The notes under the pieces were generated by a model. It made no database searches, had not been told where the DNA came from, and worked only from the letters and a program-made list of their open reading frames with translations. DNA of 64,000 bases, from assembly GCA_021802105.1 (NCBI GenBank), contig JAKAAW010000001.1, positions 8,150 through 72,149 on the forward strand. The letters are read 5' to 3'. Shown piece by piece: positions 1,649-56,715 of the stretch. This DNA is from Nanobdellota archaeon (GTDB lineage Archaea; Nanobdellota; Nanobdellia; Parvarchaeales; Parvarchaeaceae). Positions within the stretch are counted from its first letter, which is position 1, and every line of letters starts with the position of its first letter. Both the position numbers and the translations under genes were made by a program.

Positions 1649-2860
1649 ATGGTCGAGGGAAGAGAGAGAGTATCAGCCGCGGTAATACTCATAATTTTCC
1701 TTATAGCAGCAGTATTCGTTTACCTTATACTTTTACCACCGCCAGTCGCTTATAGATTGGTATACGGGAACTTCAGTAACCAGACCTCTCCATCGCAGGT
1801 GCAGAATCAGACGCCAATACCTCAGTCATTTTACTATCCTATAAGCTCATATCTAGGCGGCAATCCAAATGCACAGAATTACAGTTATACTATGGGCACA
1901 TTCGGCGTGTCGTATAATGTTTATAATTCCACCCTCTCTAACAGTGCTCCGTTTGAGTTGACATCCTCCATATTCGGTTCGTCATCTTACAATATAGGTT
2001 TCAATGGCAGCTCTTCTGACAATTATTTCATAAAACTGGATATAGGGAAAGTGTCCGGTTCACCACGTCTTAAAGTATCCCTTAATGGAGTGTACTTCTA
2101 TACCTCAATCCCTATTAGCGGCGAGAATCTGATTTTGCGCGTTCCTAGAATCAATAATGGGAAAAATGTTATATCGGTATATAATTATCTTAACGGGTTT
2201 GCCTTCTCCCAGTCAATAGACTTTTCGAATGTCTCAATAACGCAGATGTACAGCGTATCAGTGGAACACTCTATCTCTACAACGATACCAACAATAGGTG
2301 GATTAGGAAACTTCTACATTCAGCTCACTCCGATAGGCCAAGGTAATCTGTCAGTGGACATAAACAATCAGAATTTAATAGACATGTTATCTGGCAACGA
2401 CACGCAAATGACTGTAAGAATGTCGCCAAATATAGTCAATGGTGCCGTTTCACCATCAGCGTCGCCTATAGTTCCTGCTAAATTCAACACCAGCTTTACC
2501 GTGATAGGTGCAAACAGCTCATACGTCCTAGCTAATGTAGGCATAGTATACGCTGCACTTGTAATCCCTCCTCACAGTCTTACTATCCCTTACATAATAC
2601 CAAAAACATCCGGTGAATACATGCTTACATTTTACCTGAACTCCATAATAAAACAAGGATCGGTAAGTTTCTATTTTTACCCCTCCGGACAGTCCTTCCA
2701 GATACCATTCTCAAACCTTACTGTGGGGGAGAACGTTCTGATACTTCCTATATCCGCTATCTCAGGCCAGACATCAAGCGGAAATTACACAGGTACACTT
2801 TCAGTATCATCTACAGGGCTTATGATACCACAGTATGTCGACATAAAACCGACTTCCTAA
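1649..2860 (+). CDS. secreted/membrane-anchored surface glycoprotein, first gene of the pilin-like cluster
   Basis: It has a single N-terminal hydrophobic segment (AAVILIIFLIAAVFVYLILL) after a short charged N-terminus. The remainder is S/T/N-rich with very many N-x-S/T sequons (NFSNQTS, NQT, NYS, NST, NGS...). Confidence 0.5.
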   Translation: MVEGRERVSAAVILIIFLIAAVFVYLILLPPPVAYRLVYGNFSNQTSPSQVQNQTPIPQSFYYPISSYLGGNPNAQNYSYTMGTFGVSYNVYNSTLSNSAPFELTSSIFGSSSYNIGFNGSSSDNYFIKLDIGKVSGSPRLKVSLNGVYFYTSIPISGENLILRVPRINNGKNVISVYNYLNGFAFSQSIDFSNVSITQMYSVSVEHSISTTIPTIGGLGNFYIQLTPIGQGNLSVDINNQNLIDMLSGNDTQMTVRMSPNIVNGAVSPSASPIVPAKFNTSFTVIGANSSYVLANVGIVYAALVIPPHSLTIPYIIPKTSGEYMLTFYLNSIIKQGSVSFYFYPSGQSFQIPFSNLTVGENVLILPISAISGQTSSGNYTGTLSVSSTGLMIPQYVDIKPTS

Positions 2861-2903
2861 GGCACTATCTAAAAAACTTTATAATTGCATGGAGATTTAT
2901 CAA

Positions 2904-3190
2904 TGTGAGCAGAAAACCCACACTCTTTAAAGGCAGGATAAAAGTGGACTGAAAGAATGGAAAACATAAATAGCAGGAGGGCAAAGTAACAATATGCTGA
3001 CGGCATACAAATTCAGGCTGTATCCAAACAAAGAGCAAATAGAGACATCCTCCAACTACTTCGGCTGCAGCAGATTCTTTGGATACCTAAAGTACAAGGT
3101 AGTAAAGCAGGGGCCATACACCCCCGGGAAGCTTAAGCTTTCGATATGAACTGGGATCTCATGGATGAATACATAGGAGGATGTCACGAT
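2904..3190 (+). mobile_element. degenerate IS200/IS605-family element remnant (MITE-like), copy A, homologous to copy B at 25509-25848
   Basis: It contains a 52-codon ORF (2994-3152) beginning MLTAYKFRLYPNKEQIE..., which is the hallmark N-terminus of IS605 OrfB/TnpB. It is ~80% identical at the DNA level to copy B over the first ~160 bp and over the last ~60 bp, with an internal deletion relative to B. A subterminal palindrome, agcttaagct, lies at 3128-3142. Confidence 0.55.
2994..3152 (+). pseudogene. tnpB: tnpB (IS605 OrfB) 5' fragment, truncated after ~50 codons
   Basis: It translates to MLTAYKFRLYPNKEQIETSSNYFGCSRFFGYLKYKVVKQGPYTPGKLKLSI*. The N-terminal 26 residues are almost identical to the copy-B ORF at 25598. 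The RuvC and zinc-finger regions are absent. Confidence 0.55.
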
Positions 3191-4557
3191 CACTTATGAG
3201 AGCGTTTGGGTTTAGAAAGACCCCCAAAAAGTCTGATAAGGACACATCCTTTGAAGATTTACAAAAGAAAACCGAAGAGCTGCAAGCTCGAAAATATGAA
3301 GCGGAGATAAAAGAAATACAGAGAGAGAGTCGGAATCGGACGCAAATATTCGATTTTGAAACTTTAAGAAGGAATACAAAACGCCGCGCCGCAGTAATAT
3401 TTATCGTACTTCTCGTTATATCACCTGTAATAGTTTTCTTCTTTTTATCATCGACATCGCATCAGGGACCGTTCGCTTACAATCTTGAAGCTTATTACAC
3501 CAGCGTTTTCGCCCCAGTGAGCTCTCTTATATCCCCTCTTTTTGGCATTGTAACAAGCCAGCTAGCCTGTATAGGCAACCCAGTAGTGTGCGTAGGGCAG
3601 CAGACTACGAATATAACGGTCGTTGTATACCCTACTTTCACGTCTTTTGTAACGGTTACACCTGCTTCAAGCATACAGACTGTTTTCCTCACTGGAAATG
3701 ACACGCCGGCTAACCTGTTTTATACGGTATCAAATAACGCAAACGTTCCACTAGGAGCATCTACGAACAACGCCTTATTCCTCAACGAATCATGCGGTAG
3801 CACTGACAATCCTGCTGAGGCACATATCTGTGTCGTGACGACATCACCAAAAGTGATCCTAAGCAACGCCTCTTTTTCTAGTGTTTTGCTGTCCAAACAG
3901 ACCCTAACAAATGAAACAAAGATGTCAGTATCCTGTCCATCGAAAAGTTCTAACATAGCACTGCCGACATTATCCTCGTTGATACTAAATTTCACAATAA
4001 AGAATTACAGCGCTGGTTCCATACTACCTGTGCAATTCGTCAGCCAGCAGTTCAGTCAGCAGCTTCTCGCTTCGTCACAACCGCTCGAGCCTAACTTACC
4101 ATCAGTCTCGTTTGTCAGTCCGGGTCCTCTACAGATAGTAATGAGTGTAGTAGAGCCCATGCCCATAATAACTGGCACTGGAAACATCCCTATCACCATA
4201 ACCGTTAAAAACAATGGTGTAGGGGCAAACGCTTACAAAGTGAACTCGTTGTCTATATTCTTACCAAAGAGCATGTGGCCTACCAGCCCTCAAGGTAGCG
4301 GGTGGAAATGTGTATCATCCACCAGTTCGATAAAGATGCAGTTCGCCATACCTGGAAGTTCTTACTGGGTCTGCACTAACACGGAAAGTACACAACAACT
4401 CCAGTCAGCAGGAACCCAGTTTGTTCTGCCTCAGATAACTTCTCTGAGTTCACTCCACTTCAACACAGTGCCGATATTTGCTTACATGAATTACAATTAC
4501 TATGAATATATGAACATGCCTTACAAGATAAGTGCATCTGGTTCGGTGTGTGGTTAG
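3181..4557 (+). CDS. bitopic membrane protein with a cytoplasmic charged/coiled N-terminus and a large S/T/N-rich extracellular domain
   Basis: A ~70-aa K/E/R-rich N-terminus is followed by one TM segment (AAVIFIVLLVISPVIVFFFL). The extracytoplasmic region is long, with many N-x-S/T sequons. The start codon lies inside the terminal 'ggaggATGtcacgat' of the IS remnant. Confidence 0.5.
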   Translation: MSRSLMRAFGFRKTPKKSDKDTSFEDLQKKTEELQARKYEAEIKEIQRESRNRTQIFDFETLRRNTKRRAAVIFIVLLVISPVIVFFFLSSTSHQGPFAYNLEAYYTSVFAPVSSLISPLFGIVTSQLACIGNPVVCVGQQTTNITVVVYPTFTSFVTVTPASSIQTVFLTGNDTPANLFYTVSNNANVPLGASTNNALFLNESCGSTDNPAEAHICVVTTSPKVILSNASFSSVLLSKQTLTNETKMSVSCPSKSSNIALPTLSSLILNFTIKNYSAGSILPVQFVSQQFSQQLLASSQPLEPNLPSVSFVSPGPLQIVMSVVEPMPIITGTGNIPITITVKNNGVGANAYKVNSLSIFLPKSMWPTSPQGSGWKCVSSTSSIKMQFAIPGSSYWVCTNTESTQQLQSAGTQFVLPQITSLSSLHFNTVPIFAYMNYNYYEYMNMPYKISASGSVCG

Positions 4558-4561
4558 ACAT

Positions 4562-5512
4562 ATGCACATTTACGATAAAAAAGGAGCTACGAGCCTTTCC
4601 TTGCTTATAGTTGTAGCTTTCATCGTCATAGTATTGATAGTGTTGTTATCACTTCCTTCGATAAGCATAGATCTGAATCTTTTTTCAACGGCTCCGAAGT
4701 TAAACATTACTCAGGGGGTAGCAGTTTCATCCATAAGCGCACCATCAAGCGTCTCTCCATCATCGTTTTTCAATATAAACATGTACGTATCAAATAATAT
4801 AAACGGCAAAGCAGCCTCCAACATAAACCTATGCCTTGATAACGTTGGTATATTTACCGTTACGTCCGCGCAATCATGCATAAGGATACCTAACATGTTC
4901 AGCGGCTCAAGGATTCCGGAGACCTTCTCACTTCATACACCACCTAACAACGCTTACGGTAATATACCATACACACAAATCATAGGCTATTATCTAAATT
5001 ACTCTTACAGTGCTAGTGCATCCCAGTCGTTTGAATTTATATCGCAGCAGGCGTATAACAACGGCAATTACCCCCCTCCTTCACTATCTTCCTTTGGTAA
5101 CACAGCAGGGCCAATCTCAATATTTACAAGCGCTCAGCAGCCTCAGATTTATGGGTCTACTGCGCAAGCAGAGCTAATCTTATCCAATGTTGGCGATGGA
5201 ATAGTCCTCGGGCCTGTCCACGTGTCTATATCTATGGACTCAAATCAGATAGAAGTCAGCCCAGATATCTTCGGTTTTACAACCCAGAAATATGCCAACG
5301 GCACAACCATTTTTACTGGCAGCTTACCAATAAGCACAACAACAGAAAACATAACTATACCGATAGTGCTTAACCCAACCAAAGAGTCCTCTCTGTCGTC
5401 ATCGGGAGTGCCTTACTTCTCTGCGAATATGCAAATCTCCATATCCTATTCGTACGAGGTGGATGGTTTCATGCCGGTCAAACTCAATGTCGTAAACTAT
5501 TTCGTAGGATAA
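4562..5512 (+). CDS. pilin-like (class III signal peptide) secreted glycoprotein
   Basis: Using the internal start MHIYDKKG|ATSLSLLIVVAFIVIVLIVLL gives a short basic N-terminus ending in KG followed by a hydrophobic stretch, which is the archaeal prepilin/class III signal architecture. The rest is S/N/T-rich with N-glycosylation sequons. The upstream M at 4532 would overlap the previous gene. Confidence 0.5.
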   Translation: MHIYDKKGATSLSLLIVVAFIVIVLIVLLSLPSISIDLNLFSTAPKLNITQGVAVSSISAPSSVSPSSFFNINMYVSNNINGKAASNINLCLDNVGIFTVTSAQSCIRIPNMFSGSRIPETFSLHTPPNNAYGNIPYTQIIGYYLNYSYSASASQSFEFISQQAYNNGNYPPPSLSSFGNTAGPISIFTSAQQPQIYGSTAQAELILSNVGDGIVLGPVHVSISMDSNQIEVSPDIFGFTTQKYANGTTIFTGSLPISTTTENITIPIVLNPTKESSLSSSGVPYFSANMQISISYSYEVDGFMPVKLNVVNYFVG

Positions 5513-5513
5513 T

Positions 5514-6383
5514 ATGACAAAAAGAGCCCAAGCGCCGAGTGTATTATTCGTTGCGATAGCCGTGATAATAGTACTTATCGCAGTGGCTTTTTTGTTTTAT
5601 TCTGGAGTGCTCGGGCAGTTACATGGTCCTAAGATTCTGGCACTTATACCAGTCTCTGTAAATGCTACTTCTTCCATACCTCTCACTAATATGTATGCAG
5701 ATACTCCTTTCAATGTTTCGTCTATAGTCTCCAACTCAGGAAACAAGACTCTCGACGTGTCAGTACTCGGCTACGGCTGTAATCTTGCATCGGGAATGCA
5801 GGATAAGATGAATTTGGCAGTGCCTCCTGGAAACAGCAGCTCCTTCAACTGGACTTTTGTATCCCCTGGCAGCGGTAGCTGTGAGATACAGTTCACCGCA
5901 TGTTTCAACGCAACATCTAATGCGTCTTACTCGCTGCTTCTGGCAAATCCGACATTCACAGGGACACTCCCGACTGCACTGTCGGAGTCATCGGCTTCCC
6001 CAGTAAGTCTTTATCTTGGTGGATTCTCCGGTAGTATAAGAGCACCAGAATACCCTCTTAATAAGACCTTCTTTGTTTATGCAGATGTACAGGGTACAGG
6101 TTTGCTTAAAAACTCGTCCCTAAACTGGTTAGCATTAAATGTGACTGGATCTGCTTACATTCAGCTTGCTAGATTATATAACATAAAAGATTCGTCTATT
6201 AACATAACCAACGCCATCGCCCTGGGGCAGCTGTACGATAGCGGCAGTATGGAACTCCCTATACAAATTGTATTGGACCCCGTTGCAAATCCGCCAGGCT
6301 ATTCTCAAGATACCAACATAACGATTACTTCAGGATATACATACTGCATGCTATCAAAATCTCTGACGGCTTCCATCGGTTAA
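5514..6383 (+). CDS. pilin-like (class III signal peptide) secreted glycoprotein
   Basis: MTKRA|QAPSVLFVAIAVIIVLIAVAFLF is a prepilin-like N-terminus. The downstream sequence is rich in N-x-S/T sequons. The gene starts 1 nt after the previous gene, which is operonic. Confidence 0.5.
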   Translation: MTKRAQAPSVLFVAIAVIIVLIAVAFLFYSGVLGQLHGPKILALIPVSVNATSSIPLTNMYADTPFNVSSIVSNSGNKTLDVSVLGYGCNLASGMQDKMNLAVPPGNSSSFNWTFVSPGSGSCEIQFTACFNATSNASYSLLLANPTFTGTLPTALSESSASPVSLYLGGFSGSIRAPEYPLNKTFFVYADVQGTGLLKNSSLNWLALNVTGSAYIQLARLYNIKDSSINITNAIALGQLYDSGSMELPIQIVLDPVANPPGYSQDTNITITSGYTYCMLSKSLTASIG

Positions 6384-7124
6384 CTAATGTTCTACAAAAC
6401 TTTCTAAGTTTTCTTTTTCTACAGGGCTAACCTCAGAGGGTATCACTATTGCAAGAGGGGGTTTGTCCACGTTCTTGCCGGAAGAAACAAAGAACATGCG
6501 CTGATTGGCGCTCCCCATGAGCGACATACAAACTACATTAGCCCAGTTTATTATTTTCGATCCTCGTTTCTTCTCTATCTCTTTTAAGACTTTCACAGCA
6601 GCCTGTAGATCAACGAACTCGTTTTCTGTCTTTGCCTCTAAAAGAATAAGGCTATGAAATCCAGATTTTAAGTTCTTTTCGATAGTATCAAAGAAGCTTT
6701 CAGGTTTAAAGGCGTCTGTATAGATGGGTATGCTGCAAACGGCACCGAATTTATACAGCGAGAGACCTGTTTCCGCTGCTGCGGTAAGTATGCTGCCGGC
6801 GTGAATAACCTCATATTTTATGTCTCTTCTTTTGCACTCGGCAAGGAGAGAGACATGCGTAGTAGCAAACAACGGGTCCCCTGGCACGAGAAGTGCCACG
6901 TTTGAATCCCTAGCCATAGAAACTATACTGTCGTTTTCTGCCTCGTCTCTGCCGATAACTTTTACCTGTTTTCCGACTAATTTTTCTATATCGTTTAGCG
7001 CACCTATGTCGTTTGTATTCGTGTATCTCTCAAGGAACACATGATCGCACTTACTTATAACAGATATCGCTCTCAGAGGCACGTCATTTAAGTAATATAA
7101 ACCAGTACCCAATAGATATAACAT
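6384..7124 (-). CDS. dph5: diphthine synthase (EF-2 diphthamide biosynthesis methyltransferase)
   Basis: MLYLLGTGLYYLNDVPLRAI...CDHVFLERYT is the characteristic Dph5 N-terminus, and the tetrapyrrole-methylase-fold motifs (LVPGDPLFATTH) are present. The length is 246 aa. Confidence 0.85.
   Translation of the reverse strand: MLYLLGTGLYYLNDVPLRAISVISKCDHVFLERYTNTNDIGALNDIEKLVGKQVKVIGRDEAENDSIVSMARDSNVALLVPGDPLFATTHVSLLAECKRRDIKYEVIHAGSILTAAAETGLSLYKFGAVCSIPIYTDAFKPESFFDTIEKNLKSGFHSLILLEAKTENEFVDLQAAVKVLKEIEKKRGSKIINWANVVCMSLMGSANQRMFFVSSGKNVDKPPLAIVIPSEVSPVEKENLESFVEH
7090..7102 (+). promoter_or_regulatory. TATA-like box (aagtaatataaac) ~25 nt upstream of the prepilin-peptidase ATG, embedded in the first codons of divergent dph5
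   Basis: An AT-rich 'taatataaa' lies at the expected -26/-27 position for a leaderless archaeal transcript starting at 7125. There is no intergenic space between the two start codons (cat|atg at 7122-7127). Confidence 0.3.
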
Positions 7125-7967
7125 ATGATATCATATTTAGTATCGCTTATATCTATATTCGCAATCGCAACAATGTCTCTTGCCGCTTATTTCGATATAA
7201 GAACGCGGGAAGTGCCTGATTTTATCAGCTACCTAATGGTAGCAGGAGGGTTGTCTATTAACTTAGCTATTTCAATTACTTCAGGATCGATACTAAACTT
7301 AGAATTTCTTCCTTTAGCTATTCTACTTCTTTTTGGATTCTCATACCTTATGTATAGGTCAGGCCAATGGGGAGGAGGGGACGTTAAGTTAATGTTAGGT
7401 CTGTCCATGATTTTTACCGCAGGGGACCTTTTTTCACACTTCTCATTTATAGCTCTTTTCATAAACATGCTTATCTTTGGGGGGCTCTATGGAATAGTTG
7501 GAACCGTCGTATACGGGCTCGCCAAAATTAAAAAACTTTATCGCTTTCTGAAGATTTATGATATTCTACTAGTTGGTGTTGGTGCAGCTGCCATAACACT
7601 TATAGTTCTGTATATCCCAGCCCCATTCAGCTTCCTTATAGCGTTCTCAGCGTTTCTTCTTGTATCTATGAGGTATATCTATATAGTGGCCCAGAACTTG
7701 ATGTTCATAGACACTAGCGTAAATAAGCTGACAGAGGGCGATTGGCTTGCAGATGATGTAAAGGACGGATCTGGGAAAATAATAGTAAAACGTAGGCAGA
7801 CAGGGCTTCTGTTGGAGGACATAAAGAAACTTAAAGATCATGGCGTGAAAACAGTCCTAATCAAGATAGGTCTACCTTTTGTGCCCGGTTTATTAGCAGG
7901 AGTGGTGATTACGGTTGTTATTGGAAATCCCCTACTCCATCTAGTAGTTTTAAACACAGGACTATAA
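7125..7967 (+). CDS. type IV prepilin/preflagellin peptidase (A24 family, PibD/FlaK-like) with a C-terminal extension
   Basis: It is a polytopic membrane protein with a first catalytic Asp motif 'YFDIRTREVPD' in the N-terminal TM region and a second Asp in the 'QWGGGDVKLM' (GxGD) motif. Both are diagnostic of A24 aspartic prepilin peptidases. Confidence 0.75.
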   Translation: MISYLVSLISIFAIATMSLAAYFDIRTREVPDFISYLMVAGGLSINLAISITSGSILNLEFLPLAILLLFGFSYLMYRSGQWGGGDVKLMLGLSMIFTAGDLFSHFSFIALFINMLIFGGLYGIVGTVVYGLAKIKKLYRFLKIYDILLVGVGAAAITLIVLYIPAPFSFLIAFSAFLLVSMRYIYIVAQNLMFIDTSVNKLTEGDWLADDVKDGSGKIIVKRRQTGLLLEDIKKLKDHGVKTVLIKIGLPFVPGLLAGVVITVVIGNPLLHLVVLNTGL

Positions 7968-8258
7968 TCAACAATAGTTTTAAGCTTGCTCCTCAAAAAG
8001 AGATCCATCTCTTTCTAGATCGTAATCCTCATCAGGGTCGTCGTAGCTGTCGTCCCTGAATGCCATGTTCTCCTTTCTTCTCATATTTTTATTCTCTGAA
8101 CAGATAAATAATCTAATCTTTACTATCTTTCTGTAACAATTATATATCACATCTTGTATTTAAATCTTCTTTGTAAAACCAATATTTTTACATTACATAT
8201 AAATAATCACTATCTAGTAAGAAAAGTATTTATATCTTATAATCTCTATACATGCATT

Positions 8259-9042: not shown

Positions 9043-9062
9043 GTGACTGTACAATTGCAAAA
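9043..9062 (+). repeat. 5' strand of the 23S rRNA processing stem (tgtgactgtacaattgcaaa), perfectly complementary to 11918-11937
   Basis: A 20-nt perfect inverted repeat flanks the 23S gene, as expected for the archaeal pre-rRNA processing helix. Confidence 0.7.
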
Positions 9063-11917
9063 CACCAAACTATTAGATGGATGACTTGGTTCAGGTGCCG
9101 ATGAAGGACGCAGCAAGTTGCGATAAGGGCACGGGAGGCGCAGACGACCGTTGATCGTGCTGTTTTTGAATGCGTGATGCCTGCATGTAAATGCAGATTC
9201 CTTCATACGAAGGAAAGGGAACGCAGGGAACTAAAACATTTTAGTACCTGCAGGAAAAGAAATCAATCGAGATTCCCCCAGTAATGGCGAACGAAAAGGG
9301 AATAGGGCAAACCGAATCCGCAGCAATGCGGAAATGTGGTGCGAATCATGGCCGTATAGAAGGAGGCGAAGTCGACTGGAATGTCGCGTCATAGAGAGTG
9401 ACAACCTCGTAGTCTTCGGAAATGCGGTCATCGTATAGAGTAGCAGAGGTCGATACTCTTCTGTGAATACGGGTGTCAAAAACATCCAACCCTAAATACA
9501 ACCTGAAACCGATAGAGTATAGTAGCGTGAGCGAAAGTTGAAAAGCACTCTTGATGAGAGGGCGAAAAGAACCTGAAATCTAATAGTTATAGTTGTTGCG
9601 GCGCGTTGTGATTGCGTCAATAAATAAGCGTAATCAAGTGTTGCAACATCCTTTTAGCATAAAGGGGCAGGGAGTTTACGAGTACGGCAAGGCTAACGAA
9701 AGGGAGCCGAAGCGAAAGCGAGCACGCAAGTGCCGGTAGGAAACTGCCGTGAGTCGTATTTGTAAGACCCGAAGCCGTGCGATCTATACATGTGCAGGGT
9801 GAAGTGAGGATTACTCTTCATGGAGGCCCGAAAAGGTCGGGAACTATCTCGTCTTTTGACATGTGTATAGGGGCGAAAAACCAATCGTGCACGGCAATAG
9901 CTGGTTCCCATCGAAATATCCCATAGGATAGCTTTTGTCTCGTTGTGTTGAGGGTAAAGATACTGATCGTACAGATAGGGACCGAAAGGTCCCACTGCAC
10001 TGTCAAACTCAGAATATCAACATGGCAAGGGGCAAAAGTTGGGTGTATGGCGTAAAGTTTTACACCGAGAAGGAAAAAACCTAGCCGTGAGTTAAGGCCC
10101 TTAAATGTTGACTAAGTGCAAAAAAAGGAAATCATATCTAAAACAGTTGGGAGGTAGGCTCAGAAGCGGCCATCCTTTAAAAAGTGTGTTACAACTTACC
10201 AACCTAGGTATGACGACCTAAAAATGGACGGGGCTAAGTCAACTGCCGAAACTCACGATTGTCGTAAGACAATGGTAGATGGGCGTGCCTATGGACTAGA
10301 AGTCTGTTCGTAAGGGCAGATGGATCTGTAAGGCATTGAGAATCCTGCCAGGTGTAGCAAAGAAATAGGTGAGAATCCTATCCACCGCATGTGCAAGGGT
10401 TCCTTGTTTTAAGCTTATCTAACAAGGGTTAGTCGGTCCTAAGTGTCGTTTCGAAAGGAACGCCGCAAATGGGAACGCGTTTAATATTACGCGACCACAT
10501 GCGTTTTATCACGTACCACGCGTTGAGATATGCGGAGTGGTCCCGTCGGATCATCCACGGATACGTCGTGTTCGAGAGACGTAATGTCGAGAAGACATGG
10601 AAGTGTCTGTGATGCAGCGATGCATTCGCAGATTCCCAGCGCTAATAAAAACGTACGTGTCATGAACGCAGGTGACCGTACCGAAAACCGACACAGGTGC
10701 ACTGGCTGAGAAGGCTAAGGTGAGGGATTTAAACCGGGTAAGGGAAATCGGCAAATCAGTCCTGTAAGTTCGCAATAAAGGATCCCTGATCTGGTCTTAA
10801 AAGCGAGATCAGGGCGCAGTGACTAGGGGAGTCTAACTGTTTACTAAAAGCATAGCTGACTGCGAGAGAGCAATCTTTAGTACAGTCGGCGACATCTGCC
10901 CAGCACAGGTATCCGAAAGTTCGTTCCAACGGATATAAGGACCTGTTAGCGGCGGAGGTAACTGTGACCTTCTTAAGCAAGCATAATCCATTGCCAATTG
11001 ATTGTTGGCTTGTGAACGATGTAATGAGATTCCCACTGTCCCTACCTGGAAACCCGCGAAACCACCGTCCTGGTGCAAAGGCCAGGGACCTCCACAGGGT
11101 CAAAAAGACCCCAGGAACTTTACTGCAATCTCTTGTTGTAGTATTAAGATGATGGACATAGAGTAAGTAGGAGACGTTATTTCCAACGTTCCGGCGTTGG
11201 GATAGTCGAAAGTGTAACACTACTTCCATTGTCTTATACTGCTTACCTTCGGGGACAGCATGAGACGGGCAGTTTTGCTGGGGTGGCAATCCCACGAAAA
11301 GATAACATGGGAGCCCAAAGGTCATCTTAGGCGGTATAGAAATCCGCTGTTAAGTGCAATGGCAAAAGATGGCTTGACTGTGCGCTGCAATGCAAGGCGC
11401 GCAGAGGCGAAAGCCGGGCATAGCGAACACGAATGTGTGTGTTTTTGACTCCTTCGTATGACAGAAAAGCTACCCTGGGCGTAAGAGAGTTGTTGCGGAC
11501 GATAGTTCATATTGACTTCGCAGCTTGCTCCACAGTCTTTGGCTCTCCCCATCCTGGTTGTGCACAAGCAGCCAAGGGTATAGGTGTTCACTAGTTAAAG
11601 GGGACCGTGAGCTGAGTTTAGGCCGCCGCGAGGCAGGCCGGTAGTTAACTTGTGGAGGTGTTTTGATGCCTGAATGGAAGATTCGACTAGTACGAAAGGA
11701 ACAGCGAGTCGGCGCCTCTAGTTAGCGGTTATCCGACAGGGTAAGCCGCGTAGCCACGCGCTAAGGGCTAAGAGCTGAAAGCATCTAAGCTCGAAACCCC
11801 CCGTAAAAAGAGGCATCGTTGAGGTCGGGGAAAAAGACCCCGTTGATAGAATCGCCGTGTAAGAGCCGAGGCGAAAGCCGAGGTTTTCAGCGGACGATTA
11901 CTAATAAACCAAAATTC
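9063..11917 (+). rRNA. rrl: 23S ribosomal RNA (large subunit), not linked to a 16S or 5S gene in this window
   Basis: The 5' region 'GGATGACTTGG..CCGATGAAGGACG..GCGATAAGG' and 'GTACCTGCAGGAAAAGAAATCAATCGAGATTCCCCCAGTAATGGCGAACGAA' are homologous to the E. coli 23S 5' domain. The 3' region carries 'GCTGAAAGCATCTAAGCTCGAAAC' and 'GTTGATAGAATCGCCGTGTAAGAGC'. The length is ~2.85 kb, and boundaries are approximate (within about 15 nt). Confidence 0.9.
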
Positions 11918-11937
11918 TTTGCAATTGTACAGTCACA
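11918..11937 (+). repeat. 3' strand of the 23S rRNA processing stem (tttgcaattgtacagtcaca)
   Basis: It is the reverse complement of 9043-9062. Confidence 0.7.
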
Positions 11938-23054: not shown

Positions 23055-25493
23055 GTGCGTTCTACCTCTATGAGATTTTATGCAGCACCCTTGCTCATAA
23101 TTATATTAGTACTGTCTGTAGGCGCATCCCACGGCGCGCAGATATCACTAAACATTCATGAGATACCCTTTTCCGGTGTTTCGTGCACTGACCTTTCACC
23201 GTCACAGATCCAAAATGCGTACGGTTTTAACTCTCTATACAATATGGGCATCAATGGAAATGGCCAAAACGTAGCAATAGTTGTTGCTCAGGGCGATCCA
23301 ACTTTGTCCAGCGACTTGGCGGCTTTTGACTCACAATATGGTCTACCATCCCTCGTGAACGGGTCTAATCTTATACTATCTTACCCTTTCGGAGATCCAT
23401 CTTTTAATTCAAAGAACTGGACTGTCGAGACAGCCTTAGACGTTGAAGTTGTTCATTCTCTTGCGCCGCGTGCAAATATATATTTGGTAATAGCGCCAAA
23501 CGACAGCTGGCTGTTCAATGCGGTTAACTATACTATACAAAATTTGCCAGTACAAGTTATCTCACTTAGCTGGGGTGCCTCTGAGCAGTATTATTCCGCT
23601 TCTCAGGTAAACCAGATTAATAATATACTCTCTGCTGCACAAGAGAGGCACATAAGCATATTTGCGGCAAGTGGAGACAGTGGCGCGTACAATGGGTTAT
23701 CTACTTTAAATGTGAATTTCCCAGCATCCAGTCAGTATGTCATTGGGGTTGGAGGAACATCTCTATCTGCTACCTCTTCAGGCTCTTACCTAAGCGAAAC
23801 CGCTTGGAGTGGAAGCGGTGGTGGCTACAGTGCGTTCTTTCCAAAACCAGCACCTCAGCCGAATATAAGTTCTTACAGAATGGTACCTGATGTGTCTTTT
23901 AACGCAGGTACTCCCATATGTGCTTATATAAGTTCTGCTTGGGGAGGGTATTATGGTACTAGCGTAGCCGCCCCATCATGGGCAGCCATCAGTGCTCTTG
24001 TAGATCAGAGAGGAGGCGGCAGCGGAGTGGTGTCACTGAAAAGTCTTTATAGCGCGTTCTATTCCGAAGGAGGCATTGCGTATAATCTGATAAGCAGCGG
24101 CAACAACGGCTATTACTCTGCGAACGGCGGATACAGTCTGGTAACCGGGATAGGTAGTCCTAAAGTATATGCTCTAGCGCAGATACTAACAAAGGCATCA
24201 TACAAAATATCCTTTTCTGCGCTGGGTGCTGGCGCAGTTTTCGATATAAACGGAATAAACTACTCTGCACCATTTTCTCTAAATTTCAGTTACGGCCAGA
24301 AGGTATCCATGGGTGTATATGCACCATCCCATAATATGAGTAAGCGCTACGCTTTCGTTTCATACAGAGGTTTTTACAACTCAACGAATAGGACCGCAGA
24401 GTTTTATGTTGATAGCTCTGGAAACGTGACAGCTAATTTCAAAACACAGTTCGCAATAAATGAGGTTAATATAGGTGGTAACGTTAACACCACTGTATAT
24501 GCAGATAATGGAACATACTTTACCGCTTCCAGCCAGCTAAACTACATCCTATCAGGGAAAAGCTTTTCCCTTGTCGGGATAAAAATAGGTGAAAATAGCT
24601 TGGTGTACAATTCGTCTCTCCGCTTCTTTGTCAGCTCGCCTACAAGGGTCAATTTTTTGTGGAGAATAGGCAGCGTGTCAAAATTCATAATATCTGGTGT
24701 ACCACAGGGTGCCAGAGCCACCGTAAACTATACTAATTACGTTCCGCTCTCCAACAGAACAAGTACATACACAGCACTGGTCGGAAACGGAGAATCTATA
24801 CCCGTTATAGTAGGATCGAAACTGAATTACAGTGGACAGATATACCTCTCTGGATATAGATATTTTCTCCAGCCATCCAGTATCTTATCTGCGCCGGGCA
24901 TACAACTGAGTTTTGTAAAAGAATTCAGATATGTACTAACTTTCGTGTCAGCGGATAATTCAACGCTTTCTCCCACGGAAATATCCGTACTAAGTGCGTC
25001 TGCAAATAGTACCTTTTCCAACGATACAATATGGGTCCCTATCAGTGAGAATTTTAAGGTAAGTTCCGTGGAGCTTAACAATAACGGCTTCAACGCTTTA
25101 AACCACAACATAACCCTGTCTCAATACAACTATAGCTCTCCGATAAAACTACCGGTGTCCGATGTTAGCGTTCTAGTCAAGTTATATTTAGGTATACCAG
25201 TTATAGGCGCAGCCGTAAAGTTCAGTTATGACAACCTGTCGATAGAGAACTCTACAAGCAATCTTGGATCGGCACAGTTCAGCGATGTACCGAATTCTGG
25301 GTACAGTATAACAATAATGGCGTATGGGAGCAACTATACATTCTCAAATGTTTATGGTAAGAACCCGTCGTTCCAGATAAATCCTTTTATGTACCAATTA
25401 TATGTCGCGATAGCAGCGATAAGTCTTGTAATACTAATCTTTTCCGTGTGGGAAGAGCTTATGCACAGGAAAAAGAAGAGAAGCGCACAATAG
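23055..25493 (+). CDS. sedolisin-type (S53 family) serine-carboxyl peptidase, secreted, with a long C-terminal extension and a C-terminal membrane anchor
   Basis: It has a signal peptide (LLIIILVLSVGASHG) and a pro-region. Catalytic-domain motifs are 'SLSWGASE', 'FAASGDSGAY', 'GGTSLSAT' and 'YGTSVAAPSWAAISALV' (the S53 catalytic Ser in GTSxAAP). A ~450-aa S/N-rich extension follows, ending in a TM helix (LYVAIAAISLVILIFSVW) and a KKKR tail. Confidence 0.75.
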   Translation: MRSTSMRFYAAPLLIIILVLSVGASHGAQISLNIHEIPFSGVSCTDLSPSQIQNAYGFNSLYNMGINGNGQNVAIVVAQGDPTLSSDLAAFDSQYGLPSLVNGSNLILSYPFGDPSFNSKNWTVETALDVEVVHSLAPRANIYLVIAPNDSWLFNAVNYTIQNLPVQVISLSWGASEQYYSASQVNQINNILSAAQERHISIFAASGDSGAYNGLSTLNVNFPASSQYVIGVGGTSLSATSSGSYLSETAWSGSGGGYSAFFPKPAPQPNISSYRMVPDVSFNAGTPICAYISSAWGGYYGTSVAAPSWAAISALVDQRGGGSGVVSLKSLYSAFYSEGGIAYNLISSGNNGYYSANGGYSLVTGIGSPKVYALAQILTKASYKISFSALGAGAVFDINGINYSAPFSLNFSYGQKVSMGVYAPSHNMSKRYAFVSYRGFYNSTNRTAEFYVDSSGNVTANFKTQFAINEVNIGGNVNTTVYADNGTYFTASSQLNYILSGKSFSLVGIKIGENSLVYNSSLRFFVSSPTRVNFLWRIGSVSKFIISGVPQGARATVNYTNYVPLSNRTSTYTALVGNGESIPVIVGSKLNYSGQIYLSGYRYFLQPSSILSAPGIQLSFVKEFRYVLTFVSADNSTLSPTEISVLSASANSTFSNDTIWVPISENFKVSSVELNNNGFNALNHNITLSQYNYSSPIKLPVSDVSVLVKLYLGIPVIGAAVKFSYDNLSIENSTSNLGSAQFSDVPNSGYSITIMAYGSNYTFSNVYGKNPSFQINPFMYQLYVAIAAISLVILIFSVWEELMHRKKKRSAQ

Positions 25494-25508
25494 CTATTAT
25501 TTATAAAG

Positions 25509-25848
25509 TATGAGCGGAAAACTCACGATTTGAATCGTGGGATGAAAGCGGACTCAGAAATGGAAAACATAAATAGCGAAAGAGGTAGAATAACGATATG
25601 TTGACAGCATACAGGTTCAGATTGTATCCAAACAAAGAGCAAATAGAGACATTCTCCAAGTACTTCGGTTGCAGCAGAGTGGTATGGAACAAAGCCCTAG
25701 AGTTGAGAGAAAGCTATCACAAAGAGCATAAAAATGATAGGGTCTACGAGCCACGGTCTAGAGAAACAGGAACTATACGCCATGAGAAAGCTCAAGCTTT
25801 CAACAGGGGCTGGAATATCATGAATTCATTTGTGGGAGGATGTCACAA
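25509..25848 (+). mobile_element. degenerate IS200/IS605-family element remnant (MITE-like), copy B, with left and right subterminal hairpins
   Basis: It carries an LE-like hairpin ctcacgat-ttga-atcgtggg at 25522-25541. The tnpB 5' ORF (25598-25852) starts MLTAYRFRLYPNKEQIETFSKYFGCSRVVWNKALELRE, a typical TnpB N-terminus. A RE-like hairpin gaaagc-tcaa-gctttc lies at 25786-25801. The element ends 'gggaggatgtcacaat', the same terminus as copy A. Confidence 0.6.
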
Positions 25849-25852
25849 TTAA
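25598..25852 (+). pseudogene. tnpB: tnpB (IS605 OrfB) 5' fragment (84 codons), lacking the RuvC and zinc-finger regions
   Basis: The N-terminal motif MLTAYRFRLYPNKEQ is present. The ORF terminates after 84 aa, whereas intact TnpB is ~400 aa. Confidence 0.55.
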
Positions 25853-25888
25853 GGAGGTAAATCATTATATGGACAGACTCAGCATCTT

Positions 25889-28138
25889 ATGGAAGCAAAA
25901 AACAAAGATTATACAATAAATAGGGAAGAAGGTGAGATAGCACTCACTTACAAGGTACCACTGAGCGTCCTGTATCCAAACCCGGAGGACAACGAGAATA
26001 TATTCAGCAAAATAGTCAGTGCTATAATCGAATCTGGAAGCATAACATCCCTTATAATCATAAGCGACAGAAACTATGTTTACGTAAAAGATTCCGTTGA
26101 GCTTCTCAACGACCTAGCTGAACAATACAAGAACATCCTGCAATCGGACATATCAAAACCTTTCGACGCAGAGACTCAGCGCGCCCTTCCAGACGAAATG
26201 TCTATGTTCAATTATATTCTGTTCGATCGCCTGAAGATGGACCCAGTAGGCGCTTACGTTACAGGAGTCCGTGCCTTGAGAGAACTTAAGGTTAAAGCTA
26301 GAGCGTCTCCATCGTCGTCACTTGACCTCTTTGTGGAGAGGATGGACTCTCTAATGAGCCGCATAAGCGCTCTTAAGATTGTTCAGAAAAGCATGGCGTT
26401 TGTACTCGGTTACAAAATAGGAGACAGGACTCCATATAAGGCGCTCTTTAAGCCGCTTATACGACCTAATTTCACTTACACACGAATAATGTCTGAGCCA
26501 CCCATGTCCGCCATAGAAGTTGAGACGTACAAACTTAAGAATTCGGAAGGCACCGACGTTACCATATATAGGTTGCCAGGTATGTCACAATATCTCTATC
26601 ATATGTCCCCTCCAGAGCTGCTTTTGAATGTCGATGAATACAACATTCTTGACCAGGTAAGAACCGCTCTTATAGACTACAAACCGCAGGAGACGGAATT
26701 CACGGACCCTCTTAGGATGCGTGAGGTATTCTATAACATAGCAATAGACATGATAAGTGATATAAGCGAAAAAGAAGGTTATAGGCTTGCGTTCAGGGAC
26801 ATAGAGAAGTTAGCCAGCATATTAGTGAGACTGACCGTCGGATTTGGAATGACGGAGGTTATCCTTTCTGATGACAGGGTAGAGGACGTGTATATAAACG
26901 CTCCGATAAGTAAATCACCACTGTTTGTAAAACACGCAACGTATGGTGAATGCTCGACAAATATAATACCTAATGCAAAAGAAGTAGATGCTTGGGCCTC
27001 CAGGTTTAGGTTACTGTCTGGGAGACCTCTCGATGAGGGTCACCCTGTACTTGATACAGAGTTGATAACACAAAAGATACGTTCAAGGGTCGCAATAACT
27101 CAGCGTCCGCTGTCACCGAATGGTCTAAGCATAGCTTTCAGGCGGCACAGGGAAGCCCCATGGACTCTGCCGCTGTTCGTAAATAATAAGATGATATCGC
27201 CTATTGCAGCAGGTCTCCTATGGTTCTGTGTTGAAGGGGCACGTTCAGTTTTAATCAATGGTACAAGAGGCGCCGGTAAGACGTCACTTCTTACAGCACT
27301 TATGCTTATGATGATGAAGAAATACAGGATAATAACTGTAGAGGATACTCTTGAGATACCGACGGATGTGTTCAACGACATAGGTTATGATATTCTATCC
27401 ATGAAAGTACAGAGTGCGATAGTCGGCGAGAAAGCAGAGATGTCTGCAGAAGAAGGGATAAGGACGACCCTAAGGTTAGGTGACAGTGCGCTTATAGTCG
27501 GAGAGGTTAGAAGCACAGAAGCCAGGGCTCTTTATGAAGCCATGAGAGTTGGCGCGCTTTCCAATGTGGTTATGGGTACAATACATGGAGAGAGCCCTTA
27601 CGGAGTATTTGACAGAGTAGTCAATGATCTCGGTGTTCCGAAGACAAGTTTTAAGGCCACTGACCTCATAGTCTCAGTTAATAAAATAAAGAGCGTGGAC
27701 AGATTGACTGAGAGAAGAAGAGTGCTTGCAATAACAGAAGTAAGAAAGGACTGGTCGGACGACCCCAAGTATGAAAACGGGTTCGTCGATCTAGTCAAGT
27801 ACGATATAGAGAATGATATGCTAGTCCCTACAAATGATCTTCTTGAGGGCAACAGTTACATAGTCAAGGAAATCGCTTCAAAAGTAGAGGGATGGGCTGG
27901 TGATTGGGACGCAGTACTTGATAACATACAGGCAAGGGGGGAAATTTTAAAGATGATATCTGACTATGCAGATAAGACTGGTGATAGAGATATCTTGGAA
28001 GCCAAAGCCTCGACGGAAGCAGTCGATCAATATTATGAAATAGTAAACAAACTAAATGAAGAATTGGGGAGACCGCCGGACGGCAAAAGAATAGTGAGGG
28101 CGTTTGAATTATGGATAAAGGGAAGAAAACAAAGGTAA
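25889..28138 (+). CDS. type II/IV secretion-system ATPase of the FlaI/ArlI-PilB-VirB11 superfamily with an extended (~450-aa) N-terminal region
   Basis: It has a Walker A 'GTRGAGKTSLLTAL' followed by the 'ITVEDTLEI' Asp box, a 'LIVGEVRSTEA' Walker B / His-box region and 'GTIHGESP'. Its 749-aa length is ~200 aa longer than canonical FlaI. Confidence 0.8.
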   Translation: MEAKNKDYTINREEGEIALTYKVPLSVLYPNPEDNENIFSKIVSAIIESGSITSLIIISDRNYVYVKDSVELLNDLAEQYKNILQSDISKPFDAETQRALPDEMSMFNYILFDRLKMDPVGAYVTGVRALRELKVKARASPSSSLDLFVERMDSLMSRISALKIVQKSMAFVLGYKIGDRTPYKALFKPLIRPNFTYTRIMSEPPMSAIEVETYKLKNSEGTDVTIYRLPGMSQYLYHMSPPELLLNVDEYNILDQVRTALIDYKPQETEFTDPLRMREVFYNIAIDMISDISEKEGYRLAFRDIEKLASILVRLTVGFGMTEVILSDDRVEDVYINAPISKSPLFVKHATYGECSTNIIPNAKEVDAWASRFRLLSGRPLDEGHPVLDTELITQKIRSRVAITQRPLSPNGLSIAFRRHREAPWTLPLFVNNKMISPIAAGLLWFCVEGARSVLINGTRGAGKTSLLTALMLMMMKKYRIITVEDTLEIPTDVFNDIGYDILSMKVQSAIVGEKAEMSAEEGIRTTLRLGDSALIVGEVRSTEARALYEAMRVGALSNVVMGTIHGESPYGVFDRVVNDLGVPKTSFKATDLIVSVNKIKSVDRLTERRRVLAITEVRKDWSDDPKYENGFVDLVKYDIENDMLVPTNDLLEGNSYIVKEIASKVEGWAGDWDAVLDNIQARGEILKMISDYADKTGDRDILEAKASTEAVDQYYEIVNKLNEELGRPPDGKRIVRAFELWIKGRKQR

Positions 28139-56244: not shown

Positions 56245-56715
56245 TTATAAATCTTTCCTACGTTCATAAATGAGCAGTAAGGAGATTATAAGTATAGAAA
56301 ATATCGCTATGTGCCCGAGTGTGCACAGCAGACAGATAGCATCCAGTACAAACAGTTCTAAATAAATCAAGTATACTGACAGGATTGCACCGAATGCAGC
56401 GAATACCAGAACTACGTACGTAAACGAGTCGTTAAGTCTTCTTTTATCTGGACTTATCACCATTATTGATGATAACACCAAAAGAACGGCGAAGAACACT
56501 ATTCCTAGATAATAGTTGCCTATACCTAAGAAAAGTTCAGAGTATTGACTGGTAACCACTTTACCGCAGTCTATCACAGTACTAGCTATAGAACATGAAT
56601 TTTGTGGTATTATACTAGCACCAAAAGATAAAGCCAGATAGGTCATAGCAAAAAGGCCGATTATACTGAACGCAACAAGCAGATATTTAGATACGCTAAG
56701 GGATCTATCTTTCAT
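56245..56715 (-). CDS. vitamin K epoxide reductase (VKOR) family membrane protein
   Basis: It is a four/five-TM protein with a loop Cys pair (CSIASTVIDC) and a TM 'CLLCTLGH' CxxC, which is the VKOR active-site arrangement. Confidence 0.6.
   Translation of the reverse strand: MKDRSLSVSKYLLVAFSIIGLFAMTYLALSFGASIIPQNSCSIASTVIDCGKVVTSQYSELFLGIGNYYLGIVFFAVLLVLSSIMVISPDKRRLNDSFTYVVLVFAAFGAILSVYLIYLELFVLDAICLLCTLGHIAIFSILIISLLLIYERRKDL

Follow-up and report, generated by a model that had tools for sequence, protein, structure and literature searches.

A conserved cluster of surface-protein genes, two with predicted class III signals, beside an A24 prepilin-type peptidase in Parvarchaeales

Gene content and conservation of the cluster

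We analyzed a 64,000-nucleotide (nt) stretch of DNA, referred to throughout as the window, from a Nanobdellota archaeon of the Parvarchaeales (GenBank assembly GCA_021802105.1, contig JAKAAW010000001.1, positions 8,150 to 72,149 of the forward strand). The window is archaeal, with a G+C content of about 0.41, and near its start lie four genes for predicted surface proteins, here named A to D, with a gene for a prepilin-type peptidase close by; we favor reading A to D as parts of a pilin-anchored surface complex that this peptidase would process. The four consecutive, co-oriented open reading frames (ORFs) that an initial annotation, made from the letters alone, had placed at 1649-6383 are present as described, and the core genes fen and dph5 do lie beside them. 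The locus comprises the following genes (strand, product length in residues):

285-1274, +, fen, 329 residues
1267-1548, +, DUF357 gene, 93 residues
1649-2860, +, gene A, 403 residues
3196-4557, +, gene B, 453 residues (458 from an alternative ATG at 3181, which falls inside a miniature element)
4562-5512, +, gene C, 316 residues (326 from 4532, where the ORF opens)
5514-6383, +, gene D, 289 residues
6384-7124, −, dph5 (diphthine synthase), 246 residues, Pfam TP_methylase 1.3e-18
7125-7967, +, A24 aspartic prepilin-type peptidase, PibD/FlaK/EppA-like, 280 residues

The starts adopted for B (453 residues) and C (316 residues) are those of the gene callers on exact-match metagenomic contigs, which reach 94 kb in length. 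B, C and D are tightly packed, with 4 nt between B and C and 1 nt between C and D, and the 320-nt gap between A and B holds a miniature element derived from IS605/TnpB. The dph5 gene is wedged between D and the peptidase gene with zero intergenic space on both sides and occupies the same position in all related loci; we regard it as a housekeeping gene outside the system. It converges with D at 6383/6384 and diverges from the peptidase gene at 7124/7125, and in some relatives dph5 and the peptidase gene overlap by 2 nt. Since no intergenic space separates these two genes, the promoter of each must sit within the coding sequence of the other. Directly downstream of the peptidase locus is a complete 23S rRNA gene (9053-11926, +); the rRNA genes are unlinked, since neither a 16S nor a 5S gene adjoins it.

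A scan of species-representative genomes recovered 26 related loci (cited individually below by handles such as L010), all in Parvarchaeales-type metagenome-assembled genomes (MAGs) and including ARMAN-4 and ARMAN-5; the named homologues of C belong to 'Candidatus Parvarchaeota'. A Thermoplasmatales origin, considered on account of the unlinked 23S rRNA gene and the G+C content, was rejected in the light of these homologues and loci. The order fen, DUF357 gene, A, B, C, (X), D, dph5 on the minus strand and peptidase gene is kept in essentially all 26, and the adjacency of A-B-C-(X)-D, dph5 and the peptidase gene is found in 24 of the 24 Parvarchaeales loci long enough to show it. The fifth gene, X (~305 residues), is absent from the window, L011 and L019, a distribution that points to an ancestral five-gene module in this lineage, with X apparently lost in the window. 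The whole ~20-kb region, including the housekeeping genes fen, dph5, polB and map, is syntenic across Parvarchaeales. Within it, identity falls to 34% for D and 41% for B where fen retains 70%. A literature search with the ARMAN locus tags returned no matches.

Class III signals in C, D and X

A class III (prepilin) signal combines a short basic leader ending in [KR]-[GAS] with a hydrophobic stretch of ~20 residues at the extreme N-terminus, and both C and D have this design. C begins MHIYDKKG↓ATSLSLLIVVAFIVIVLIVLL (KKG↓ATSLSLLIVV; the arrow marks the predicted cleavage site) and D begins MTKRA↓QAPSVLFVAIAVIIVLIAV (RA↓QAPSVLFVAI). Across 27 orthologues, C follows the pattern xNKKG↓[ASQ], with G at −1 in 25, K or R at −2 in 24 and A, Q or S at +1 in 24; in another comparison of C, G8 is invariant and K7 is conserved at 90% or more. 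The corresponding pattern in 27 orthologues of D is K[GAS]↓Q: the −1 residue is G, A or S and the +1 residue is Q in every one, K or R stands at −2 in 24, and G stands at +3 in 21. X carries KKA↓A or xxG↓ASG, with G or A at −1 and A at +1 in 19 of 19. Because these positions are fixed and a plain signal anchor needs none of them, we take them to be class III signatures. Judged by their sequences, C and D carry canonical class III signals, and with X the count of class III proteins is two of the four genes in the window and three of the five ancestral genes.

The initial annotation had proposed prepilin-type N-termini in at least two of the proteins, and this is borne out by C (KKG↓A) and D (RA↓Q), whose site residues are conserved in ~27 species. 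Its more general statements apply to part of the cluster. A single N-terminal hydrophobic segment is present in A, C and D, whereas that of B lies at residues 62-89, and the description of all four as pilin-like fits C and D but neither B, which is bitopic with a cytoplasmic domain, nor A, which lacks the K/R-G/A site.

Searches against Pfam and NCBIfam, including PF04021 (Class_IIIsignal), DUF361 and the archaellin and pilin N-terminal models, gave no match at E ≤ 1 for A to D or for an X orthologue; neither PF04021 nor DUF361, to which the initial annotation had pointed, is recognizable in A to D. The missing matches weaken the case for membership of those families rather than for the class III design itself, as the N-terminal models are short and family-specific. 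C, X and D share more than their N-terminal design, with hhalign probabilities of 97.9% for X and D over 258 columns, 94% for C and X, and 91% for C and D over 121 columns. The idea that A to D are all mutual paralogues was rejected: BLAST and hhalign relate only C, X and D, and A and B are unrelated. A word-index homology search with D recovered only D itself, a D+X profile search recovered only X-type proteins, and profiles of A, C and D/X compared with the sequences in the PDB gave nothing significant. The FimH mannose-binding lectin domain was matched weakly by positions 162-268 of the D/X profile; at E 0.011 this match is below significance and was treated as noise.

The adjacent A24 peptidase and a giant class III neighbor

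The A24 peptidase with two-aspartate motifs that the initial annotation described next to the cluster is well supported. Its product matches Pfam Peptidase_A24 (PF01478) at 5.4e-12 and 46.5 bits (cut-off 26.5), and it aligns to FlaK (PDB 3s0x) across both aspartate motifs, FDIRTREVPD and GGGDVK. Both catalytic residues are present in this alignment, and D24 and D86, in the first and second motif, respectively, are invariant in 25 of 25 orthologues. Further matches to Arc_PepC and Arc_PepC_II are weak, and the NCBIfam FlaK model is matched at 2.6e-7 and 30.5 bits, under its equivalog cut-off of 330. The protein thus resembles PibD, FlaK and EppA in its above-threshold PF01478 match, in the alignment of its aspartate motifs with FlaK and in its weak matches to archaeal C-terminal domains, and departs from them in falling under the NCBIfam FlaK cut-off and in abutting dph5 divergently with no intergenic space.

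Five further features of the window bear on the system:

2905-3190, +, TnpB-derived miniature element, copy 1, between A and B
25505-25860 (approximate), +, TnpB-derived miniature element, copy 2, directly 5' of the ATPase gene
25889-28138, +, FlaI/PilB/TadA-type secretion ATPase, 749 residues, Pfam T2SSE
28111-30222, +, polytopic membrane protein, candidate TadC/FlaJ-like platform, 703 residues, weak T2SSF
38924-43084, +, giant class III-headed surface protein, 1386 residues, three DUF2341 domains

The giant protein begins MPKYSLTINKKS↓QSALEYLLTYGWAITIIV (KKS↓QSALEYLLTYGW), a canonical class III N-terminus with Q at +1 and E at +5. In 16 of 24 related loci (among them L008:14635-19950, L017:14609-18112, L018:14781-19091 and L033:14777-18928), the A24 peptidase gene is followed after ~200 nt by a co-oriented gene for a homologue (identity up to 49%), and the N-termini of these homologues, for example KKG↓QTVVESLMTYGW, likewise have Q at +1 and E at +5. 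In the window the gene is ~31 kb from the peptidase gene, having moved from the immediately downstream position seen in those 16 relatives. The [GAS]↓Q site of D is the same as that of the giant protein, which by its sequence and neighborhood is probably another substrate of the peptidase. A conserved 'class III island', newly described here, surrounds the peptidase.

A second line of evidence comes from a sister lineage, L040 (G+C 35%), in which the locus is rearranged and contains fen, A, B, a C anchored by a transmembrane (TM) segment, an A24-like gene on the opposite strand, and dph5. The A24-like gene has sub-threshold Pfam matches together with D...GD motifs. That it still stands beside A-B-C despite the rearrangement adds weight to the adjacency of module and peptidase.

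These observations bear on a simpler account, in which the proteins are uncleaved type II signal-anchor envelope glycoproteins whose basic residues obey the positive-inside rule, while the peptidase stands beside them only because gene order is frozen in so small a genome, its real substrates being others, for example the giant G↓Q protein. A and B do lie clearly outside the class III design, no class III hidden Markov model (HMM) matches any of A to D, synteny covers the whole region with fen, dph5, polB and map, the cluster is separated from the peptidase gene by dph5 on the opposite strand, and the lipoprotein homologues described below show that such ectodomains can function as simple membrane-tethered proteins. 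A plain anchor, however, has no need of an invariant G/A/S at −1, of Q at +1 in D (27 of 27), of A at +1 in X (19 of 19) or of G at +3. Moreover, the K[GAS]↓Q site of D is that of the giant class III protein found beside the peptidase in relatives, and the A24-like gene of L040 has stayed next to A-B-C through rearrangement. We consider uncleaved anchors improbable on this balance.

Genes A and B and the TnpB-derived elements

A begins MVEGRERVS and continues directly into a TM helix. The N-terminal pattern M-x-E-R-E-R-[IV]-[PS]-A-[AV]-V is strongly conserved in ~28 orthologues and contains no K/R-G/A site, so that the sequence around the start of the helix (ERERVS-AAV) is not a class III leader. 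The gene has a TATA-like box of its own on the 5' side (TTTATATATT, 1619-1628).

In B, the sole hydrophobic segment (residues 62-89) follows a charged cytoplasmic region of ~61 residues. All 29 of 29 orthologues show the same arrangement, with a variable, charged cytoplasmic region of 41-187 residues followed by a single TM segment, and B accordingly looks like a bitopic membrane protein with a Cys-rich ectodomain rather than a prepilin. In the ARMAN-4/5-like clade, the cytoplasmic region contains CxxC and a C2H2 zinc-finger-like motif (CDICGLHFKTKAQLYQHQIAEH; for example L008:8518-9999), which is absent from the B of the window.

The stretch at 2905-3190 appears, from its sequence, to be a miniature element derived from an IS200/IS605 TnpB gene and inserted between A and B. 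A 51-codon remnant ORF within it (2994-3149) matches Pfam HTH_OrfB_IS605, and the closest relatives, L010 and L011, have no element at the A/B junction, where A and B are spaced by 47-53 nt. The second copy, 5' of the ATPase gene, is 77% identical and in the same orientation, with both ends conserved. Both B (3196) and the ATPase gene (25889) have their start codon at an identical CTTATG, which marks the 3' boundary of the element. The element might supply a shared promoter or 5' untranslated region to the B and ATPase operons, or the resemblance may be coincidence.

Sequons, cysteines and predicted folds of the products

We measured sequon enrichment by comparing counts of N-x-S/T with composition-preserving shuffles. 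A (13 sequons against 6.8 ± 2.2 in shuffles) and D (12 against 4.2 ± 1.8) are enriched, whereas B (8 against 6.3) and C (4 against 5.5) do not exceed what their composition predicts; the initial description of all four as packed with sequons thus holds for A and D, with B and C at composition level. Per 100 residues, D (4.15) and A (3.23) rank first and second of 47 window ORFs, for which the median is 0.56. Other secreted proteins of the window, such as an S8-like protease, are similarly sequon-rich, which makes this density a property of the exoproteome of the organism. Sequon columns are conserved in all families, and only 7-12% of the residues in A to D are charged.

The ectodomains also contain invariant cysteines, five in B, two in C and four in D; X has invariant cysteines as well, and A has none. 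A homologue of VKOR, a disulfide-bond formation enzyme, is encoded at 56245-56715 (−) of the window, and in relatives its gene lies 5-6 kb from that of the peptidase (L007:20046-20513, L008:19952-20482, L009:19274-19726). Its presence fits the invariant ectodomain cysteines of B, C, X and D.

AlphaFold2 models were built for A and C. For A (15 sequences; mean predicted local distance difference test score, pLDDT, 82.4), the model contains a helix at residues 10-39, a disordered, sequon-rich linker at 40-58 and beta structure at 61-403; the ectodomain is predicted to be a tandem, multi-domain array of jelly-roll or carbohydrate-binding module (CBM)-like beta domains. Foldseek comparison of A with the PDB returned only CBM or jelly-roll-type structures (Cry protoxin, BcsB, PNGase F, Vip3), with TM-scores below 0.25. 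For C (13 sequences; pLDDT 76.8), a helix at 11-37 and a flexible linker precede beta domains at 53-160 and 178-308, predicted to be two immunoglobulin (Ig)-like beta-sandwiches. The Foldseek matches of C were generic tandem Ig-like domains only (integrin calf/thigh, complement MG and AglB C-terminal domains), with low TM-scores. Overall, the Foldseek matches were limited to Ig-like, CBM-like and adhesin-like folds; no pilin was matched in the PDB by either modelled protein, and neither has the look of a compact major pilin.

As beta-sandwich proteins of low charge, extracellular and probably glycosylated, the products could also be components of an S-layer, or anchors of one, forming a structural cell-wall lattice. 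Weak CARDB and DUF11 matches in relatives and the retention of the module in many DPANN lineages would suit such a role. Nonetheless, no S-layer family was matched, and the set consists of five distinct, mid-sized, membrane-anchored proteins, one with a cytoplasmic domain; to our knowledge, S-layers are made of one or two components, which the A-B-C-X-D set does not match. The rapid divergence of D and B fits interaction surfaces and lattices alike and does not decide between them. Overall, we consider a lattice function very unlikely.

A candidate assembly motor and platform elsewhere in the window

The initial annotation had paired the cluster with an ATPase and a membrane protein at 25.9-30.2 kb. 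A T2SSE ATPase and an overlapping polytopic protein do exist there, with only a weak T2SSF match for the latter. The ATPase matches Pfam T2SSE at 4.6e-18, above cut-off, has the Walker A motif GTRGAGKTS and carries an N-terminal extension of ~290 residues. In NCBIfam it matches FlaI (1e-38), TadA (2.8e-34) and BasE (9e-22), all under the equivalog cut-offs, and on these similarities it is a candidate assembly motor. The 703-residue membrane protein had no match in NCBIfam. The two genes overlap by 28 nt, which suggests that they form one operon. Just upstream of miniature element copy 2 and the ATPase gene lies the gene for an S8-type (subtilase-like) surface protease (23055-25493, +, 812 residues); the protein has a Sec signal, is anchored by a C-terminal TM segment and contains 25 N-x-S/T sequons. 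The ATPase gene is ~20 kb from the cluster, no small pilin gene stands beside it in the window, and a metagenome scan with the ATPase for its neighbors in relatives returned no matches.

The ATPase and platform candidate may assemble the products of the cluster, and on the strongest version of this idea the cluster encodes a true type IV pilus, whose heavily glycosylated structural subunits would be C and D, together with X and possibly A, processed by the adjacent peptidase and polymerized by the FlaI/TadC-like pair at 25.9-30.2 kb. The conserved class III signals of C and D and the genuine peptidase are what such a system would have; the 64 kb contain an ATPase and a candidate platform with no adjacent small pilin, which leaves C, D and the giant protein as the sole class III candidates; and the same miniature element lies 5' of both the B-C-D operon and the ATPase operon. 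The subunits, however, are 289-403 residues long, and the modelled A and C have at least two domains. Archaeal major pilins known to us are small, single-domain proteins (~100-250 residues, a helix and one domain), a size and design from which C (316 residues, two domains), A (403 residues, multi-domain) and D (289 residues) all depart. Several distinct genes in one operon-like block suit a hetero-complex better than a single abundant shaft subunit, the ~80 distant homologues of C described below are lipoproteins unable to polymerize through an N-terminal helix, linkage of the cluster to the ATPase was seen in none of at least 26 genomes, and Foldseek found no pilin in the PDB. We therefore regard a true pilus as unlikely, even though pili-like fibers have been reported at contacts between ARMAN and Thermoplasmatales cells (PMC4110969). 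The initial description of a dispersed type IV pilus-like system would be a reasonable inference, but the cluster is unlinked to the ATPase and TadC-like genes in every genome examined. Its reading of the products as pilus subunits is doubtful in view of their 289-403 residues, the multi-domain models of A and C, and the lipoproteins among the distant homologues of C.

Lipoprotein-anchored relatives in other DPANN archaea

The C profile, run with HMMER against the full set of 1.84 billion representative proteins, returned 93 matches. The 13 strongest are orthologues, most of them with class III-like N-termini, and the ~80 weaker ones (E 1e-22 to 1e-3) nearly all have a Sec signal ending in a lipobox (...[G/A]C). 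In two of the loci so identified, L037 and L041, five consecutive unannotated genes match the module in size and order (405-554-477-291-310 residues in L037), with a homologue of A at position 1 (hhalign 96%) and a homologue of C at position 3 (98%). The A homologues of these lipoprotein-type modules (HMM E 6e-14) begin MEKTQKG↓Q and MRG↓Q, which is class III-like. Related runs of lipoprotein genes with no detected A homologue occur in L039, with seven unannotated genes in a row, and in L038, an Aenigmatarchaeota MAG with four. In L038 the four consecutive lipobox proteins, one of them the C homologue, are encoded at 2426-7987 (L038:2426-7987) and adjoin a gene of the AliA_AliB family (PF01889), a recently described family of archaeal lipoprotein lipidation enzymes.

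No A24 peptidase gene was found within 8-9 kb in L037, L038, L039 or L041. Conversely, each lipoprotein-type locus of 12-17 kb has 2-5 ORFs with a lipobox, and the 49 ORFs of the window include none. The cluster thus resembles the AliA/AliB-dependent, CARDB/DUF11-type lipoproteins of DPANN archaea in its homologous C-family ectodomain (E down to 1e-22), in the A-family first gene and in module size and order. It differs in having a class III signal and helix where they have a lipobox Cys, and in its adjacent A24 peptidase; the lipoprotein modules also stand in another genomic context, beside PAC2-Nop10-eIF2alpha. Lipoproteins and AliA have been described as common in DPANN 'with some gaps' (PMC12462473). 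From these comparisons we read the cluster as the form that an older DPANN surface module has taken in this lineage, where lipoprotein subunits would have been converted to class III-signal proteins.

Discussion

Surface proteins with class III signals and a PibD-type peptidase are an already known kind of system. One example is the Sulfolobales bindosome, in which GlcS, AraS and TreS are processed by PibD and assembled with BasEF and BasABC. Display of class III-signal sugar-binding proteins in Sulfolobales through a BasEF-dependent bindosome has been described (bioRxiv 10.64898/2026.04.22.720090). As in the bindosome, the window proteins of an acidophile have class III signals where their counterparts elsewhere are lipobox lipoproteins, the genes for the surface proteins lie apart from those for the ATPase and platform, a PibD-type A24 peptidase (broad-specificity in the bindosome) is present, and the window ATPase scores against the BasE model (9e-22). 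In contrast to the bindosome, the window ectodomains are predicted to be Ig-like or jelly-roll rather than of the substrate-binding-protein fold, no ABC transporter lies near the cluster, the module is fixed at four or five genes and includes a bitopic and a non-canonical anchor protein, and no BasABC-like small pilins were found in the window.

The cluster is also comparable to minor-pilin or tip operons, such as the bacterial FimU-PilVWXE and GspHIJK and the EpdA-D genes with EppA of Methanococcus maripaludis, in which several distinct pilin-like genes stand side by side, encode proteins larger than a major pilin and lie near a dedicated prepilin peptidase. EppA-type substrates reportedly have Q at +1 (Szabo et al. 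2007), as D does. Unlike those operons, the cluster shows no DUF361 or PF04021 similarity at the sequence or profile level, two of its four genes are not pilin-like, no major pilin was identified, and it is unlinked to the ATPase and platform genes. Besides the class III island, what appears new is the swap of a lipobox for a class III anchor on homologous ectodomains, and that A, B, C, X and D are here defined as five families, so far unannotated, with their signal types.

We therefore favor, at a probability of roughly 0.55, the reading that A to D form a pilin-anchored ('bindosome-like' or minor-pilin/pseudopilus-like) glycoprotein surface complex, processed by the adjacent peptidase, rather than a long pilus shaft. 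C and D, and X where it is present, would be synthesized with class III signal peptides. Once Sec has inserted them, the A24 peptidase encoded next door, acting through D24 and D86, would trim the basic leader at [KR]-[GAS]↓[AQ], leaving the hydrophobic helix as the mature N-terminus and as a pilin-type anchor or assembly handle. Mature C and D would then join the signal-anchored A and the bitopic B in a glycosylated, disulfide-stabilized, hetero-oligomeric surface complex, possibly built on the FlaI/TadC-like pair 20 kb downstream. We prefer such a hetero-complex to a pilus shaft because of the size and multi-domain nature of the subunits, their single operon-like block, the lipoprotein homologues and the missing ATPase linkage. 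Its likely role would be adhesion or recognition where host cells are contacted. Such a role at ARMAN-host contacts is plausible given the predicted Ig- and CBM-like folds, the divergence of D and B, and the pili-like and 'Velcro-like' fibers and contacts reported between ARMAN and Thermoplasmatales (PMC4110969).

Several observations weigh against this reading. With A lacking a K/R-G/A site and B not a prepilin, half of the cluster stands outside the class III paradigm, and no pilin, class III or DUF361 HMM matches any of A to D. Since synteny extends across Parvarchaeales, the adjacency of the peptidase within the clade amounts to about one observation, and independent support for it is limited to L040 and the giant-protein neighbor. 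On the assembly side, the only match of the 703-residue membrane protein is a weak one to T2SSF (E 0.0039, 17.6 bits against a cut-off of 25.2), and no homologue of the ATPase, of TadC or of the S8 protease lies within ±10 kb of the cluster in at least 26 related loci. In the distant lipoprotein modules, positions 2, 4 and 5 have the topology and size of B, X and D, yet their sequence similarity to these is weak (hhalign 3-51%). Finally, the AlphaFold alignments are shallow (13 and 15 sequences), and the inter-domain geometry is uncertain, with predicted TM-scores of 0.46-0.63.

A broader scenario, which we put forward as possible but doubtful, would start from an ancient, DPANN-wide module with a pilin-like A and lipoproteins at the other positions. 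This module would have been re-tooled with class III signals in the acidophilic Parvarchaeales, perhaps after loss of AliA/AliB, and would have captured the peptidase and the giant pilin-headed adhesin, yielding an organelle that depends on type IV filament machinery and docks onto wall-less Thermoplasmatales hosts. If true, pilin anchoring would have been recruited in 'bindosome-style' fashion a second time, independently, and the organelle would be a candidate for what underlies, at the molecular level, the ARMAN-host contacts that cryo-electron tomography has shown.

DPANN archaea need physical contact with a host, and the molecules that make this contact are almost entirely 'dark matter', a term also applied by Makarova et al. 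to DPANN pilins, which they found undetectable (PMC6393860). The locus offers a conserved, testable candidate set in ARMAN-type Parvarchaeales, in which a cognate peptidase and a giant pilin-headed protein accompany the four or five surface proteins. Topology and signal type now provide annotation labels for the uncharacterized families A, B, C, X and D. The apparent switch of anchor bears on how proteins are displayed on the surface of archaea without a lipoprotein pathway, and on the co-option of type IV filament machinery beyond pili.

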